Part shown: positions 5,826-49,572 of the stretch, piece by piece
Layout: each line of letters begins with the position of its first letter
Numbering within the stretch: position 1 is the first letter of the stretch
Position numbers and translations under genes: made by a program
The notes under the pieces: model-generated
The model's database searches: none
What the model saw: the letters and a program-made list of their open reading frames with translations, nothing else
What the model was told of the DNA's origin: nothing
Origin: a virus
Lineage: Duplodnaviria; Caudoviricetes
Reading direction: 5' to 3' (one strand)
IMG/VR virus record: IMGVR_UViG_3300025296_000020
Span: 1-50,390 of that record
Length of the DNA: 50,390 bases

Positions 5826-6260
5826 ATGCCTGAAGCAACACAAGACGACACGGTCGTATCTTTAAAGGATGCTTATATAGCCGTCGAGGAGAAGATCCTT
5901 GATCCCGACAAAATAGAGGATTCCTCATTGGAGCGACTTCCCAAGCCTACGGGGTGGCGCTTGTTGATCCTGCCGTATCGTGGAAAAGGAAAAACAGAAG
6001 CTGGGATATTCTTGCCGGATACCGTGGTAGATCGTGAAGCGGTAGCCACGGTGTGTGGTTATGTTTTACGCACCGGACCTTTGGCGTATAAGGACGAGGA
6101 AAAATTTCCCAACGGCCCCTGGTGCAAGGAAAAGGATTGGATCATTTTTGGAAGATATGCTGGCGCTCGTTTTAGGATTGACGGTGGCGAGGTACGCATA
6201 TTGAACGACGACGAAGTCATAGCCGTCATACAGGACCCTGAAGATATCCTGCATATTTAA
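5826..6260 (+). CDS. groES: GroES/Cpn10-like co-chaperonin
   Basis: PTGWRLLILP...KTEAGIFLP...G.VLRTGP...IIFGRYAG...RILNDDEVIAV matches the Cpn10 pattern. Confidence 0.85.
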   Translation: MPEATQDDTVVSLKDAYIAVEEKILDPDKIEDSSLERLPKPTGWRLLILPYRGKGKTEAGIFLPDTVVDREAVATVCGYVLRTGPLAYKDEEKFPNGPWCKEKDWIIFGRYAGARFRIDGGEVRILNDDEVIAVIQDPEDILHI

Positions 6261-35611: not shown

Positions 35612-35830
35612 CTACTTCTTGAGCTTCCACAAGATGTACGGTTCCCCGCACGGTTCCTCGCTGTCCACGTCGATGCACTGAAACACAATGGACTCTGCAT
35701 CAGCGTCCGGTTTCTGGTGGCCCACGTATTCCCACGTGGCTCCATCGTGACGCTCGCTTCTGACTTGCTCAAAGAAAGTGAAATGCTGTTCGTAAAACAG
35801 TAACGATATCAACCCTATAACTATGGACAT
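35612..35830 (-). CDS. 72-aa hypothetical protein with short hydrophobic N-terminus (MSIVIGLISLLF...)
   Basis: Start placed at ATG 35830 after AAGGA; the longer 108-aa call merely reads through the repeat array. Confidence 0.55.
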   Translation of the reverse strand: MSIVIGLISLLFYEQHFTFFEQVRSERHDGATWEYVGHQKPDADAESIVFQCIDVDSEEPCGEPYILWKLKK

Positions 35831-35834
35831 GTTT

Positions 35835-36421
35835 TTTCCTTTCCAGTCCTTGTCTTTCCAGTCCCTATCAGACCGCGCCAAATCATAACCGTGTCTGCCA
35901 TGCCGCGCCAAATCAAACCCTGCCCGATCTCGCCTCATCTTTCCCCATCGCGCCGGTACACGCCTGTCATACCTGACCTTGCCGCGCCGTATCGGAACCT
36001 AACCCGACCTTGCCGCACCATATCCTGCCTTATCTGCGTTGTCTTGCCGCGCCGTGCCCACCCCATCGCGCCGGTACACGCCTGTCATACCTGATCTTGC
36101 CATGCCGCTCCGAATCGCGCCATATCTCACCATACCGGCGTTGCGTTGCAGCGCCAACCCATATCACACCTTACCGCACCTCGTCATACCTGCGTTGTCA
36201 GTCCGCACCAGTCCAAACCAGATCAAACCCGGCCCCATCAAACCGCATCCCGCCTAACCTGCCGTGCCGAGCCATATCAGACCCTACCGCTCCGAACCGC
36301 TCCCGACCTAACCATACCGCTCCCGACCGCACCTTGTCTGCCGTGCCGCTCCAAATCACATCAAACCCAACCGGACCCGTCCCGACCTCATCAAACCGCA
36401 CCCAACCGTGTCTGCCTTGCC
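35835..36421 (-). ncRNA. Period-5 (GGY/GAY/GGA)-NN repeat array; putative guide-RNA array (VIPR-like)
   Basis: Minus strand reads GGC AA GGC A GAC AC GGT TG GGT GC GGT TT GAT GA GGT CG GGA CG GGT CC...; roughly 115-120 pentamers; begins 1 nt after the upstream stop codon; ~9 segments delimited by single-nt spacers. Confidence 0.85.
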
Positions 36422-36422
36422 A

Positions 36423-36926
36423 CTACTCCGCTGCTTGTAGGACAGCGGGAGGAGATTCCAGAATAGAGATGATTCGGTCAAGAGGTTGTGTAGTCAGCCC
36501 TGCCGAAGATAGAGCAACTGAGTATCTTTCTATCCATGCTTTCAAATCGACAACACTTTGGCGGCGTAGTTCCTCAAGATGATCCGGATCGTCAGGATCG
36601 AACATGTAGTAGCCAGTCCCCTCTTGTCTCGTTGATGAGGGAGAGAGAAGAAGGGGAACCTCTCTTTCCTGCACTTTAATTTTTCCTGTGCGAGAAATAT
36701 GCTCTACCTCAAAAACCAACTTGAGTCCTTGGACGAACATCCGCGCTTCCCATGTTCTTTGTTGGTTAGCAGCTTTAGTATCGTCCCACGTAAAATATCC
36801 GTAAGCGGGGTGGTCAGGCCCCACGGACCTGACCTCCTCTACAAACGTTCCAGGACTATAAATCCCGTTATGATTAAGACAGAATTCTTTAACGATTTCC
36901 TGTCGTTTTTGGCGCGTCATTTTCAT
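36423..36926 (-). CDS. Accessory protein of the RAMP/array locus
   Basis: 167 aa, PDHPAYGYFTWDDTKAANQQRTWEARMFV; ATGA-coupled to the RAMP-like gene and abutting the array. Confidence 0.75.
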   Translation of the reverse strand: MKMTRQKRQEIVKEFCLNHNGIYSPGTFVEEVRSVGPDHPAYGYFTWDDTKAANQQRTWEARMFVQGLKLVFEVEHISRTGKIKVQEREVPLLLSPSSTRQEGTGYYMFDPDDPDHLEELRRQSVVDLKAWIERYSVALSSAGLTTQPLDRIISILESPPAVLQAAE

Positions 36927-37684
36927 GCGGCTTCCCTCCGTTCAACTTCCGAATTGAAGAAGTCCATTAGGTCTTCCGTATCACTGTCAGCGCACACCGG
37001 AAGCTTTAACGCTTTTTCCTGCGCTTTTCTCCCGTGATGCTTAACCAGTTCATCCCACTCGTCGTCTTGATCGTCAGCTGAAATGACGCGGAAGGAACCA
37101 AAGTTGCCTTTTCCCTTTTCCTGACGATAATCGCCTAATCCTATCAGTACCCCTGCATTGCAAAGGATGTTGAAAAGAGAAGTAAGATTAAGCTGGGGAA
37201 CGATGTAACGCATCTCAATTTCCGCCCCCCATTTAGGTATAAACGGGCGTGTCCGAATGTCAGGAGTTTTGTTAATGCCACCCTGGCGCACGATATCCAT
37301 TTTGAGATATGGAGTACCGTATAGAGGTGTCATATCTCCCGGCATGAACAAGAGGCGTTGAATTTCGGTTTTAAAAACACCCGCCGTTTCAAGAGCAGCA
37401 GTCGCCATAGCTGCCTTTACAGCGATGACCTTGAGACCCAAAGCTGTAGGACCGTCAAGAACCACTTCAGCTGCATCCCGATATTCCTGAAGAGGATCAT
37501 GTTTAATGTAGGCTTTATCCAGTTTGGATTTGCCTTTCCCGCTACCAACCAAAAATTCCTGTTTGGCCTTGGCGCTCATCCGGTTCTGATACATTGGAGT
37601 TGTTCCAATTAACCGAAGGTTACAAGCCTTTTGCGTAAGCTTGCTGACATTGATCGTCACACTTTCTTTTTTAGCTGTTGCCAT
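36923..37684 (-). CDS. Stand-alone RAMP/Cas7-like RNA-binding protein (Vipr-like)
   Basis: N-terminal strand LRLIGTTP, LGLKVIAVKAAM helix (cf. IPGSSLKGALR of Cas7-group RAMPs), thumb-like VRQGGINKTPDIRTRP, C-terminal G-loop GLGDYRQEKGKGNFGSFRV. Confidence 0.75.
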   Translation of the reverse strand: MATAKKESVTINVSKLTQKACNLRLIGTTPMYQNRMSAKAKQEFLVGSGKGKSKLDKAYIKHDPLQEYRDAAEVVLDGPTALGLKVIAVKAAMATAALETAGVFKTEIQRLLFMPGDMTPLYGTPYLKMDIVRQGGINKTPDIRTRPFIPKWGAEIEMRYIVPQLNLTSLFNILCNAGVLIGLGDYRQEKGKGNFGSFRVISADDQDDEWDELVKHHGRKAQEKALKLPVCADSDTEDLMDFFNSEVERREAA

Positions 37685-37699: not shown

Positions 37700-39136
37700 T
37701 TATTGCAACCATTCGCGGGTTTGTTCCCCCAAAATCTGATCAGCAATGTTAATCTTGCTACGCAAAGCGCGAACGATTTTTTCGTCTACGGTGGAGGGGG
37801 AGATCAGATCGATGTATGTTACTTTGCTTGTCTGCCCAATCCGGTGGGCGCGGTCTTCCGACTGAAGCCGCAATTCCAAATCATAGCTGTTGGAATAATA
37901 AATGACCGTGTTGGCGGCAGTGAGCGTTAGCCCATAGCCGCCCGTTTTAGGGTGCCCCACAAGGAACCGCAGATCTGATTGCCGATCCTGGAAAGTTTCC
38001 ACGATCTCCTGGCGCTCAGAATCCGGCGTTTCCCCGTGGAGCTTTGCAACCGCCTGTACGCTGTAGCGGTCACGCAAGGCATCAGCAATCGAACGAATGT
38101 CCATGGTCCATGTCGCCCATATGATTGCCTTACCTTGTATCTCTTCGCATAAGTCCAGAAGCATATCTAAACGCTTGGAGGGTAGCTCATGCACGACGCC
38201 TTCGTCATCCGTCAGGTGACCACAGCAAATTTGCTGTAAGCGCATGATCTGGGTGAGAACGTTTTTGGTCGTGGACAACTCCCCACTGTCCAGATGCGCC
38301 AACGCCAAATGCGTCATCTGGTCGTAAGCCTTCTTCTGTTCCTTGGTCAGTTCGATGTCCCGTTTGACATAGACCTTGTCTGGAAGGTCCAGGCAGTCCT
38401 CTTTACGGACACGGAACGAGTGCTGCTCCAATTTAGCAGTGAGTTCGTCCAGCCGTCGAAATCCGACGATGTGGTTGAAAGAATGACTTCCCAGAGTACG
38501 GCGCTGAACAATCGCGTACCGTCCCTGGAATGCGTAGTAAGAGGTGAAGCCTAGAATGTCCGGGTCCAGGAAATTCAGCTGACTGAAAAGATCCAGCGGA
38601 GACTTGGTCACCGGGGACCCCGTCAAGATACGCCTGTACCGCGCACCACGGCCCAAGTCACACAGAGCTTTGGTCCGCTTGGCTTTCCGGTTCTTGATAG
38701 TGGTGCTTTCGTCTACCACCATGAAGACATTGAATTTCTTCACGAAGAGGGAAGCTACCTCCACTCCCTTGCGGGTACTGAACGCCTCGACATTCATCAA
38801 CAGGCATTTCAACCCGTCGCCGTCCTGGAAAAGGGTGTTCAGCGACTTTCGCATGGCCTTGGTCAGGGAGGGCTTCCACAGCAGGATCTTGTTTGGAAAC
38901 CTGTCTGGGAGGTGCTTGTGGATTTCCGGCACCCAGTTGGCAATGACGGTTTTGGGCGCTACAATGAGAACGAAGTCGATTTCTTTTTCCTCATACAAGT
39001 AAGCTGCCGTGTCTAACGCGACCTTTGTCTTACCGGTTCCCATGTCCATCAAGAGTGCATATGTCGAGCATTCGGCGCTCGCGTTGAAAGCATCTTCTTG
39101 GTGTTTATAGGGCTTTGTTAAAAATTTATAATCCAT
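37700..39136 (-). CDS. SNF2-like (SF2) helicase/ATPase
   Basis: Q-motif PYKHQ, DMGTGKT, VVDEST, LTGSP, GGYGLTL, QSEDRAHRIGQ; start placed at ATG 39136. Confidence 0.9.
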   Translation of the reverse strand: MDYKFLTKPYKHQEDAFNASAECSTYALLMDMGTGKTKVALDTAAYLYEEKEIDFVLIVAPKTVIANWVPEIHKHLPDRFPNKILLWKPSLTKAMRKSLNTLFQDGDGLKCLLMNVEAFSTRKGVEVASLFVKKFNVFMVVDESTTIKNRKAKRTKALCDLGRGARYRRILTGSPVTKSPLDLFSQLNFLDPDILGFTSYYAFQGRYAIVQRRTLGSHSFNHIVGFRRLDELTAKLEQHSFRVRKEDCLDLPDKVYVKRDIELTKEQKKAYDQMTHLALAHLDSGELSTTKNVLTQIMRLQQICCGHLTDDEGVVHELPSKRLDMLLDLCEEIQGKAIIWATWTMDIRSIADALRDRYSVQAVAKLHGETPDSERQEIVETFQDRQSDLRFLVGHPKTGGYGLTLTAANTVIYYSNSYDLELRLQSEDRAHRIGQTSKVTYIDLISPSTVDEKIVRALRSKINIADQILGEQTREWLQ

Positions 39137-40631: not shown

Positions 40632-42176
40632 GTGGAAAAGGAACTCACCAAACGATTCAGCCGTCTTTTCCGGGGCTTGAACAGAGCCTACGGCACGTTC
40701 GATATAACGGGTAAGGCAGCTAACGGCAAGCACAAGGGTAAGGCTCGTATCGTTCACGAACCACGGACCTTGAAGACTTTTGACGCCCATTTAAACGGCG
40801 AACAAGGTGTTGGCGTTGTTCCCATCAACGAGAACAACCAATGCTTGTGGGGGGCGATAGACATCGACACCTATCCCCTGGATCACACCAAGCTTATTAA
40901 CCACATCTCCCAATTGAAATTTCCCCTTGTCGTCTGCCGTAGCAAATCCGGAGGGGGACATCTTTATCTATTTCTCAAGGAAGCCGTCGCCGCCGAAAAG
41001 CTGCAAACCAAGCTGAAGGAAGTGACCTCTGAGCTAGGCTATGCATCCAATACGGAAGTATTCCCAAAACAGATCCAGCTGGTTTTGGAGCGGGGCGATA
41101 CCGGCAATTTCTTGAACCTTCCCTATTTCGATCAAGAACGTGGGTTACGATACGCCTTCAACGCTGACGGCAGTGCAGCCACTCTGGAAGAATTTCTCGA
41201 CATGGCGGAAGCGTCTGCCATTACAGAAGAAGAACTGGACAACCTCGCGTCTGAGGAAGCCGTCCAAATCGACAAGCGGCTACCGGACGGACCCCCATGC
41301 CTACAGGCTCTTTTTCGTCAGGGATTCCCGGAAGGCACCCGAAACAATGGCCTCTTTAACGTAGGCGTTTACCTACGCAAGGCGTTCCCCGATGAATGGG
41401 AAACCAAAATTCTTGAACATAATCAATTGATTATGGACCCTCCTCTGGATTTGAACGAAGTCAACATCGTAGCCGACCAATTGAAGAAGAAAGACTACCA
41501 GTATAAATGTACCGACCAGCCCATCTGTAATTTCTGCAACAAGGATTTGTGTCGCAGCCGCAAGCATGGCGTTGGAGGAGGAGCCAACACGCCCACCGTC
41601 GCCAACCTGCGTAAGTATGACAGCGAACCGCCGCTCTGGTTTCTCGACGTAAACGGCTCTCCTGTCGAACTGGATACGGAGGGTTTGCAAAAGCAGCCCC
41701 GGTTTCAAATCCTCTGCATGGAGCAAATTAATTTCATGCCCCGCACCGTGACGCGACAAGCGTGGGAAGCGCAGATGAATACGTTGCTTTCCGCCATGGT
41801 CGATACGGAAGGGGCCGTCATCACAACTTCGGACGATACCAGCATCCGGGGTCAGTTCTACGAGATGCTGGAAGATTTCGCCACGCATATGCAGACAGCC
41901 TTGGACAGAGAAGAGATCCTGCTCCGTCGCCCATGGACCAACGAAAAAGAGGACCGCACCTATTTCCGTCTCAAGGATCTGGAAGCGTTCCTCAAGCGAA
42001 ATAAATTTTTTGAGTACAAATCCAACAAGATTGCCCAGCGCCTACGGGACATGGACGGGAGGGCAGAGCAATTGAAAATCAAAGGCCGTACCGTGCGGTG
42101 TTGGTCCATTCCGGCTTACGATCAAATCGATGAGGAGTTCAATTCCAAGTTCGATGAGGAGGATGTGCCATTCTAA
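40632..42176 (+). CDS. AEP-family primase/primase-polymerase
   Basis: WGAIDID, RSKSGGGHLYL, NFLNLPY; PPCL...EGTRNNGLF and Cys cluster CTDQPICNFCNKDLC. Confidence 0.8.
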   Translation: MEKELTKRFSRLFRGLNRAYGTFDITGKAANGKHKGKARIVHEPRTLKTFDAHLNGEQGVGVVPINENNQCLWGAIDIDTYPLDHTKLINHISQLKFPLVVCRSKSGGGHLYLFLKEAVAAEKLQTKLKEVTSELGYASNTEVFPKQIQLVLERGDTGNFLNLPYFDQERGLRYAFNADGSAATLEEFLDMAEASAITEEELDNLASEEAVQIDKRLPDGPPCLQALFRQGFPEGTRNNGLFNVGVYLRKAFPDEWETKILEHNQLIMDPPLDLNEVNIVADQLKKKDYQYKCTDQPICNFCNKDLCRSRKHGVGGGANTPTVANLRKYDSEPPLWFLDVNGSPVELDTEGLQKQPRFQILCMEQINFMPRTVTRQAWEAQMNTLLSAMVDTEGAVITTSDDTSIRGQFYEMLEDFATHMQTALDREEILLRRPWTNEKEDRTYFRLKDLEAFLKRNKFFEYKSNKIAQRLRDMDGRAEQLKIKGRTVRCWSIPAYDQIDEEFNSKFDEEDVPF

Positions 42177-47628: not shown

Positions 47629-48155
47629 TGGGCAAAAGATCCGATTTTAAACGGCGGGAACGGGACTTTTATCCCACGCCATACGAGGCTGTATTCCCTC
47701 TGCTCCCCCACCTTGCGCCTAAAACCAAGTTCATCGAGCCTTGCGCCGGGGAACGGGACCTTGTGCGTCACCTCACCGAGCATGGGCATGAGTGCGTCAG
47801 TGCCAGCGACATCAGCGACAGCCCTGGAATCGATGCGCGTCACCTCACAGATGGTGAAGGAGCCGACGCTTTCATCACCAATCCTCCCTGGGGGCGGCCT
47901 GTCCTACACCCTATAATTGTAAATTTATCCAATACGCTGCCCACGTGGCTTCTTTTTGATGCCGACTGGATGCACACGAAACAGGCGGTTACCTATCTTG
48001 AGCGGTGTCTCAAGATCGTCTCCGTCGCCAGAGTTAAATGGATGGGTCCCGATTCCCCCCACACGGGAAAGGACAACTGTTGCTGGTATCTTTTTGACCG
48101 AAATCACCCAGAACCTCCCGTGACGCAATTTTTTGGTAAGCCGTGGAATATATAA
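47628..48155 (+). CDS. DNA amino-methyltransferase (m6A/m4C type)
   Basis: DFYPTP, SAM-binding EPCAG, catalytic ITNPPW; TAATG-coupled start. Confidence 0.85.
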   Translation: MGKRSDFKRRERDFYPTPYEAVFPLLPHLAPKTKFIEPCAGERDLVRHLTEHGHECVSASDISDSPGIDARHLTDGEGADAFITNPPWGRPVLHPIIVNLSNTLPTWLLFDADWMHTKQAVTYLERCLKIVSVARVKWMGPDSPHTGKDNCCWYLFDRNHPEPPVTQFFGKPWNI

Positions 48156-48961
48156 GCGTCAGCCTTGGGCTACTCCGTCTATTGTACGACCTCAACAGCC
48201 CTGCCGCCGTCCCTCCCAATCTCATCATCCAGCAGTGGCTCTATGGAAAGGGAACTTACGTCATCCACCAGGACATCACCGAAAGAGAAGCCTGTTCGCG
48301 AGCCGAATCCCGCGCCAAGCTGGACGCGCTGCGGCAATTCGGCGGCGAATACATGGGCGCACAGTCTCTTGTAGCCTGTGAGGAGACCAATGACGGCGTT
48401 AATTGCCCCATGCAGAATATCACCTGGACCACGGTCAACGGACTCATCAGCCGTATCCGCAACAAGACCGTGCGAGCCGGTGAAACGCTGGAAGGGCACC
48501 GCACGTGCCGCGTCGTCCTGGAAGCGCAAATTTCCCTGCGCCCAGAGGCCCCGGACCCCGGCTTCGACATCCAGATCAAGCTCTCCTCCGACATCTTCCG
48601 GGAGGGAGACCCCATCACCATCAGCCTGGACCCAAGCCAACCCATGTACGTTAATTTGTTGATGGAAGACGCCAATCACGACATTCATAAAGTCTTCCCT
48701 AACCAATACGATACAAACTTTTATATCGCATCACGGACCACGGTCCCAGCTACGAAGGGTTACAAAATCCTCGCGGCGTATGCACCCAACATTACATCCC
48801 CTACTTCCTACGAAATCCTGCACGTTCTCGCTACGCCGCAAAAGCTATTCTTATCAGACACTTACGACCCAGAGACCCTCGCCTTGAAGGTTCTGGAAAT
48901 TCCCAACGACCAACGACGTTATACCCGTCACACATACAAACTCATCAGGAGGACCCAATGA
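48143..48961 (+). CDS. Exported protein with DUF4384-like C-terminal domain
   Basis: EACSRAESRAKLDAL N-terminal part; FREGDPITI...PMYVNL...VFPNQY. Confidence 0.6.
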   Translation: MEYISVSLGLLRLLYDLNSPAAVPPNLIIQQWLYGKGTYVIHQDITEREACSRAESRAKLDALRQFGGEYMGAQSLVACEETNDGVNCPMQNITWTTVNGLISRIRNKTVRAGETLEGHRTCRVVLEAQISLRPEAPDPGFDIQIKLSSDIFREGDPITISLDPSQPMYVNLLMEDANHDIHKVFPNQYDTNFYIASRTTVPATKGYKILAAYAPNITSPTSYEILHVLATPQKLFLSDTYDPETLALKVLEIPNDQRRYTRHTYKLIRRTQ

Positions 48962-49572
48962 ATATAGCCCTAGCCATCGCGGCCTACTTACTCGTTAGCT
49001 TTTTACTCGCCGGTTGTTCGTCCCCGGCCCCTGGCTCTCCCGAATCGTTCATGCAGAAGCAACAAGCCAAGCACAACGCCCAACAGGCCATGATCCAGGA
49101 CACCATTGACGACCTCCCCAAGTGGTACAAGGATGTGCCAAAAAGCGACTATGCCATCCTGTCGGCTGGTGTCGCCACATCGCCTCACCTCCAGCTTGCC
49201 GTAGACAAGGCCATCTTGAACGCCAAGCGTATGCTCGCAGACCGGGTTGAGGGGCTGTTGTCATCCCAGGTAAAACAGTATGTGTCTGAAACGGGACGCG
49301 AAATCGCACCTATGGCTCTCATGGACTCAGAACACGTTACAAAAAATGTCCTAAGAGATGTCAACGTCTCCGGATACCGCGTCGAGGATATGGACATTAA
49401 ATCGCATGGGACCTATTTCCGAGTTTACGTTCTCCTTATGTACCCCCTCGGTGAAATGAACGACATCCTCACCTTACGACAGAGGCAGAGAGAGGCCAAG
49501 GAGCGTGTCTCCAGAACCGAAAAGGCGTATGATGAACTAGAGAAAGAACGCCGTGTTCCTGATTCGTACTAG
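48958..49572 (+). CDS. LPP20-like lipoprotein
   Basis: Signal peptide with LAGC lipobox; PKWY...SAGVATS..LQLAVDKAILNAKRMLA...FRVYVLL. Confidence 0.75.
   Translation: MNIALAIAAYLLVSFLLAGCSSPAPGSPESFMQKQQAKHNAQQAMIQDTIDDLPKWYKDVPKSDYAILSAGVATSPHLQLAVDKAILNAKRMLADRVEGLLSSQVKQYVSETGREIAPMALMDSEHVTKNVLRDVNVSGYRVEDMDIKSHGTYFRVYVLLMYPLGEMNDILTLRQRQREAKERVSRTEKAYDELEKERRVPDSY

Follow-up and report, generated by a model that had tools for sequence, protein, structure and literature searches.

A staggered-array VIPR locus in a phage genome, with two guides matching primase-helicase and HGGxSTG genes of small islands

What kind of system arises when a phage gene for a RAMP-like protein is tightly coupled to a second gene and to a long run of pentamers, and which sequences could the variable letters of those pentamers address? 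The question is raised by the minus strand of IMG/VR record IMGVR_UViG_3300025296_000020, whose whole length of 50,390 nt was analysed and is called the window here. It is an entire 50-kb virus record, encoding portal and major head proteins, PolA, an AEP primase, two helicases and an M15 endolysin. A sequence-only reading had described the two-gene unit and its array, had noted that cas1/cas2, nucleases and conventional CRISPR repeats were absent, and had likened the unit to the recently reported VIPR loci of phages. In line with these absences, no integrase, Cas or nuclease family appeared among 49 ORFs searched with Pfam and 46 ORFs searched with PHROGs, no 20-mer occurs three times in the window, and Rfam returned no match. 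Because the ORF scans found no integrase, we infer from the sequence that the phage may follow a lytic lifestyle. Elsewhere in the window, a gene for a phage-encoded GroES co-chaperonin (5826-6260) adjoins the head genes, a 616-aa ORF without a family (244-2091) precedes the portal gene, DUF4384 and LPP20 lipoprotein-like genes lie close to the right end (48143-49569), and no terminase was recognised in any window ORF.

The vipr-vap unit and its slipped pentamer array

The two-gene unit stood as first described when the ORF coordinates were re-confirmed: vipr and vap overlap by ATGA, and 1 nt separates the second stop codon from the array (Table 1). The SNF2-type helicase gene upstream probably shares a transcript with vipr and is a non-conserved partner of it; promoter and terminator scans gave chance-level results only. 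Among the 81 homologous viral loci examined, which are the best 80 of 575 plus one further and many of which are redundant, this helicase gene adjoins vipr in four, a Vap homologue is the first long ORF 3′ of vipr in 71, and a period-5 segment lies no more than about 800 nt from the vipr end in 76, so that the linkage between homologues and arrays proposed as a check was found. Two of the five loci without an array are cut by a contig end. In the more distant homologues (L052-L082; L numbers are our locus labels), part of the array sits between vipr and vap, representing a second architecture. L016 and L017 contain a second period-5 segment about 1.5-1.9 kb upstream of vipr, and a lone opposite-strand motif run may be this upstream segment.

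Table 1. Position of the vipr-vap locus, its guides and its neighbouring genes in the window
Feature	Position	Strand	Remarks
SNF2-type helicase gene	37700..39136	-	stops 15 nt upstream of vipr
vipr	36923..37684	-	253-aa RAMP-fold protein
vap	36423..36926	-	167-aa accessory protein, phrog_15946
staggered vrRNA array	35835..36421	-	about nine units split by one-base register slips
guide 1	36339..36412	-	14 pentamers; island HGGxSTG genes matched
guide 2	36260..36338	-	15 pentamers; no target found
guide 3	36191..36259	-	13 pentamers; no target found
guides 4 and 5	36083..36190	-	10 pentamers each; none above chance in fetched loci
guides 6 and 7	35965..36082	-	118-nt block flanked by 47-nt direct repeats
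guide 8	35896..35964	-	13 pentamers; DUF5906 primase-helicase genes matched
last unit, degenerate	35835..35895	-	final pentamers also serve as ribosome-binding site for the ORF that follows
72-aa ORF	35612..35830	-	directly 3′ of the array; without a family

The search for Vipr relatives retained 1,307 at E<=0.001 among 1,818 candidates. An AF2 model of the 253-aa protein, built from 113 relatives, reached a pLDDT of 85, and a single-sequence AlphaFold model with a pLDDT of 32 was discarded. Type III-A Csm chains ranked first in the Foldseek search with the retained model (E 9e-6), and VIA-align gave Z 9.2 with an rmsd of 3.7 over 148 residues, the top 20 rows all being CRISPR complexes or subunits. 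The modelled Vipr folds like Csm3/Cas7, as a RAMP homologue with RRM core, thumb and G-loop, in agreement with the earlier placement of this product among the RAMP proteins. At the sequence level, its sole PDB match at E<=10 was the Vipr of Escherichia phage SUSP1 (36pp_D, E 0.035), which also came first of 8 when the Vipr profile was compared with the PDB (E 0.0066) and which HHalign aligned at 92.6% (E 4.6e-7) over residues 133-200. Vipr R146/D185/Y186/R187 align with SUSP1 R138/D177/W178/R179, the residues reported from cryo-EM to read the GGY bases (bioRxiv 10.64898/2026.04.26.720927), and R146, D185 and R187 are invariant across 113 Vipr homologues. By alignment, the guide-reading thumb and G-loop residues are kept in the window Vipr; its N-terminal half gave no sequence alignment to SUSP1 Vipr, whose N-terminal contacts are H17, K33, R39, E71, M72 and K82. 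Shorter Vipr homologues, 24-28% identical over residues 11-200 and annotated as hypothetical, were also seen in Mycobacterium and Gordonia phages (records H1-H30). Vap received no Pfam, NCBIfam or PDB assignment and matches unnamed families only; it carries residues invariant among its homologues, and its comparison with vap1 gave an HHalign probability of 1.8% over 17 columns (4.6 bits).

The array is periodic far above shuffled sequence. Its autocorrelation at lags 5 and 10 (35820-36422) was 0.46, whereas 500 shuffles that preserved dinucleotides gave 0.29 (z 9.8 and 10.3), and the best 200-nt period-5 score in the window was 0.21 within the array and 0.056 outside it. There are 106 in-phase pentamers, of which 100 begin with GGT (34), GGC (26), GAT (21), GGA (14) or GAC (5); GGY triplets are found in 60 of the 106 (57%) and GAT, GGA or GAC in 40, the clade-wide GGY share being 46% of 854 units (non-GGY 54%, against 43% in the window). 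The array had been described as about 590 nt of pentamers, and this held for the periodicity and not for a single continuous register. One-base slips, each located where GGCA, CGCA, GACA or CGCC meets a G, divide it into about nine units of about 10-15 pentamers each, with three additional slips within units 6, 7 and 9 and with internal 4- and 6-nt units. Junctions between guide-like units were 4-nt steps in 169 of 174 cases (GGCA 87, GGCG 50, CGCA 17), as counted with a parser that broke 9-nt steps into 5+4, and the close-clade junction A-x-S-G-C-A|G has A at -6 in 43/46 and G at 0 in 46/46. The units abut, and a structured 3′ tail is absent, the folds of guides 1, 2 and 8 scoring z 0.70, -0.31 and 0.26 against shuffles. 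Arrays appear to change by recombination, because the 118-nt guide 6/7 block is missing from L001, a locus that is otherwise identical, and because L006 has two tandem guides that resemble each other in their triplets and, when decoded, give two different forms of the HGGxSTG motif. The idea that the NN letters are better conserved than the triplets was not borne out by 27 homologous guide pairs, in which the differences per pentamer site over 377 units were 0.04, 0.10, 0.08, 0.10 and 0.10.

The RAMP fold, the kinship with SUSP1 Vipr, the arrays beside homologues and the non-contiguous NN code described below all bear out the earlier assignment to VIPR, a system present in the literature, and the locus is almost certainly a genuine VIPR locus of the staggered-array kind. 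It consists, like a minimal phage VIPR locus, of vipr and one vap without cas genes or a CRISPR array. VIPR tracts are defined by 9-16 GGY/NN pentamers or a related consensus, and the tracts here have this form with a relaxed consensus. Successive guides are offset by one overlapping base, and the legend of fig. S18 in the VIPR preprint likewise describes staggered vrRNA arrays as ones in which guides overlap by one base (bioRxiv 10.64898/2026.04.26.720920).

Genes matched by the decoded guides

Read as codon positions 1 and 2, the NN string of guide 8 gives VPAG[KN][DE][DE]R[RS][FL][FL]A, which reads as a primase-helicase motif and was then put to a search. The search pattern comprised 12 dinucleotides with a one-base skip, two positions being degenerate after the guides of relatives, and the collection-wide scans accepted exact matches only. 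It returned one match in viral contigs, five in genomes and nine in metagenomes; for the genome collection, chance alone would give about 0.02 if the four bases were equally frequent. All 15 matches lie in frame on one primase-helicase motif with the wobble base skipped (23-25/26); DUF5906 was confirmed in the scanned targets, and all 15 match the primase of L096. Guide 8 matches, in sense, the VPAG[KN][DE][DE]RRFF codons, at 22-25/26 across 16 loci. Because its exact 26-base form finds nothing in metagenome contigs, the matched genes are taken to be relatives of the true target.

Guide 1 provided an independent test, as it had no part in the search that fetched the loci. It matched L084, one of those loci, at 24/28, in antisense, on an HGGxSTG gene (NF041373) that converges on the primase gene, with a chance of about 9e-5 over the target bases then in the set, and it matched L099 at 24/28 and L105 at 26/28, the last with its first 22 positions perfect and the wobble base skipped. 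The match to island HGGxSTG genes is antisense and covers their C-terminal codons, and L105 additionally carries a guide-8 site (22/26). The decoded targets of guides 1 and 8 are new here.

The clade-wide test compared 47 distinct guides of at least 11 units with 244,510 bases in 27 target loci. Twelve of them reached 80% at skip 1 and none at skips 0, 2 or 3; none of 470 shuffled guides reached this level, and none of the 47 matched its own genome, which upholds the proposal that the NN letters spell a non-contiguous target. Five of the 12 matches are on HGGxSTG and three on a gene relic that immediately precedes HGGxSTG in L084. Three of the 12 are circular, because they fall on the motif used for fetching the loci, and one is short (19/22) and doubtful. 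Guide 8 is not in this list, apparently because the parser ran it together with the unit that follows, and 35 of the 47 guides stayed below 80%. A relative's guide matched L084 at 26/26. Guides of relatives also tile successive parts of the HGGxSTG protein (L003:1816; L006:873 and 962; L008:4866, 4955 and 5034; L010:5751), most of these extra guides remaining below 80% in the loci compared.

No target was found for seven of the roughly nine window guides (2-7 and 9). Viral contigs gave no match to guide 1, to guide 2 with two patterns, or to guide 3; guide 2 also had no match in 46 genomes at 3 mismatches, and the match of guide 3 in 401 genomes is attributable to chance, since one match stood against one control match. 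On its own genome guide 5 scored 16/20, a level that short strings also attain under wrong skips. Guide 2 matches L026:4888-4932 at 22/30, antisense and in frame, in the most conserved stretch of the vap of another VIPR phage, and judged by this alignment it may be an anti-VIPR guide. A second reading of guide 2 is as an integrase arm-binding motif; neither this nor the vap motif is proven.

Both target genes sit in the same small AlpA-primase islands. Within about 5 kb, L096 has the order tRNA-Ser, P4-like integrase, an unknown gene, AlpA, AEP-DUF5906 primase-helicase and a convergent HGGxSTG gene, and part of this order recurs in L088, L086, L094 and L105. Integrase, AlpA and primase are co-located in L096, L088 and L086, and no virion genes were recognised in these five islands. 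The exception among the guide-8 loci is L083, a prophage-like element with integrase and terminase. The bins bearing targets are labelled Rhodospirillaceae, Dehalococcoidia, Nitrospinota, Pseudomonadota and Burkholderiales; Vipr was not found when queried in five target-bearing genomes, and no solo pentamer arrays were seen in the 27 target loci. The phage's own primase is without the helicase motif that guide 8 targets. This AEP primase (window 40632-42176) is 36% identical to the island primase-helicase over the N-terminal part of the latter.

A query with HGGxSTG among 151 genomes of the G001 phylum returned its own genome only, and a search of viral contigs for relatives of the L084 HGGxSTG protein gave none that could be confirmed; HGGxSTG-like genes are present in five cultured phages. 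A role for HGGxSTG as a small terminase is unsupported by three annotated phage neighbourhoods, in one of which a pac site adjoins the gene. No mention of HGGxSTG was found in the literature searched, and none of a primase in the text of the VIPR paper with staggered arrays, the figures or data tables of which may list the clade or its targets. An 82-bp stretch occurs twice on one contig (G001:C29; L084:8680-8760 and L102:6987-7067, 85% identical), one copy on either side of a molybdopterin oxidoreductase operon and an Fnr-type regulator. The stretch looks like the remnant of a gene (ACLAALEQWS) and is absent from Rfam and from four other genomes. Its copy upstream of HGGxSTG is the one matched by three clade guides, again skipping the wobble base.

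Proposed role and rival explanations

We consider it likely that this VIPR locus, through guides 1 and 8 on small-island genes, silences the islands, which are predicted satellites of this phage, during infection. By analogy with SUSP1 VIPR, the array would be co-transcribed with vipr and vap; each pentamer would take up one Vipr protomer, with the triplet buried and NN presented, and the resulting filament would invade double-stranded DNA and block transcription without cutting. The anatomy of the array suggests that each one-base slip would end a filament and mark a processing point, so that the guides would measure about 55-80 nt and share a short 3′ end in place of a structured tail. Silencing of the primase-helicase would then stop island replication. 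In the preprints, transcription, RNA binding and one protomer per pentamer are shown for SUSP1 and P. fulva VIPR only. For SUSP1, these sources describe triplex-driven invasion and silencing without cutting (bioRxiv 10.64898/2026.04.26.720920, 10.64898/2026.04.26.720927), and the suppression of a satellite with wobble-skipping, for which vap1 is also required (bioRxiv 10.64898/2026.10.15.759431). A wider proposal is put forward only tentatively: the locus would represent a tail-less VIPR variant with an extended Vipr, relaxed triplets and slip-cut guides that are re-aimed by array duplication and recombination, and its targets would be undescribed tRNA-integrated integrase-AlpA-primase-HGGxSTG satellites, whose HGGxSTG could hijack the helper phage.

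The same machinery could act mainly against full prophages or co-infecting phages, VIPR phages included, with the islands as motif-sharing bystanders. The guide-8 motif in the prophage-like L083, the HGGxSTG-like genes of cultured phages and guide 2, which finds its best local match in frame within another VIPR phage's vap, all point that way, and prophage and VIPR targets are reported for the P. fulva clade (bioRxiv 10.64898/2026.04.26.720920). We nevertheless regard this as unlikely, since both decoded genes match best in the small islands L084, L096 and L105, where no virion gene was recognised, and viral contigs gave only one of the 15 guide-8 matches and none for guide 1. It is decidedly unlikely that the islands carry anti-phage cargo or abortive functions, are not capsid parasites and are merely curbed by VIPR in their amplification. 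Such a role would fit the GmrSD-HNH gene of the L106 element, the Schlafen-type helicase that adjoins the L105 element, and the fact that neither capsid nor packaging genes were recognised among the island genes; however, the guides aim at core replication and HGGxSTG genes and not at cargo, and L086 and L096 have little or no cargo.

Two further alternatives concern the locus itself. Some VIPR types have predicted nucleases (bioRxiv 10.64898/2026.04.26.720920), and Vap, which is not detectably vap1 and has invariant residues, might be a nuclease or recruit one, so that targets would be cut and not merely silenced; yet it matches no nuclease family in Pfam, NCBIfam, PDB or Atlas, and the nuclease VIPR types are reported to be enriched in host defence islands, which makes this very unlikely. 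That the array is a decaying relic from which guides are no longer produced is scarcely credible. Its degenerate triplets, its internal 4- and 6-nt units and the loss of units between near-identical phages are what decay would leave, whereas vipr and vap are intact and conserved, the junction motif is conserved, and guides rich in non-GGY triplets still match targets at 26/26 and 32/34.

VIPR is months old (2026 preprints), and the experiments concern mainly two type II systems. The present locus, predicted here to silence small islands, backs the one-base-skip, wobble-blind code with independent sequence evidence from a distant clade with staggered arrays and names putative natural targets of that clade. 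Several guides fall on HGGxSTG, and the gene is therefore apparently important to the phage. The guide-target pairs are ready for tests of tail-less processing, of tolerance to triplet drift and of how new guides arise without Cas1; the value of the locus lies in its decoded targets and its relaxed, tail-less guides.

Comparison with known systems

The locus resembles staggered VIPR in its phage-borne vipr and vap, its pentamer guides, its units with a one-base overlap and its wobble-aligned one-base-skip code. Of the VIPR types I-VII, the preprint text gives targets for two type II clades and for types III and V (bioRxiv 10.64898/2026.04.26.720920); DUF5906 and HGGxSTG genes are not among the targets named in that text, whereas both are matched here.

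The type II VIPR of SUSP1 (PDB 36pp) is similar in that the thumb and G-loop residues align and that its guides, too, address codon positions 1-2 in conserved genes carried by integrated elements. Vipr is longer here, with 253 aa against 195 aa, the three C-terminal helices of the model (208-252) extending past SUSP1 Vipr by about 50 aa. SUSP1 has a structured tail of about 40 nt between guides, which has no counterpart in the window, and its triplets are near-strict GGY, compared with 57% here. Substitutions of the SUSP1 GGY, including GAY and GGA, were tested and the perturbation is reported to abolish silencing, and the same preprint mentions internal degeneracy and NNNGG, YNNNG and NNNNG variants (bioRxiv 10.64898/2026.04.26.720920). 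The accessory gene of SUSP1 is vap1, and the window vap is not detectably vap1. The targets are an excision recombinase for SUSP1 and primase-helicase and HGGxSTG genes here; unlike the SUSP1 target element, the islands matched here show no tail genes.

With Csm3/Cas7 of class 1 CRISPR-Cas, Vipr shares the RAMP fold (Z 8-9), at 9-14% identity; the window is without cas genes and a repeat-spacer array, and the pairing is gapped and not contiguous. The target islands, being small and carrying integrase, AlpA and primase, resemble PICMI satellites, for which DUF5906 is part of the search model and prim is needed for replication (PMC10803314). PICMI are excised and packaged on induction by a helper phage. 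They integrate downstream of fis, whereas the L096 integrase follows tRNA-Ser (in L086 and L088 the sequence opens at a contig end), and L096 differs from PICMI further in carrying an HGGxSTG gene and in lying outside Vibrionaceae, its dependence on a helper being predicted.
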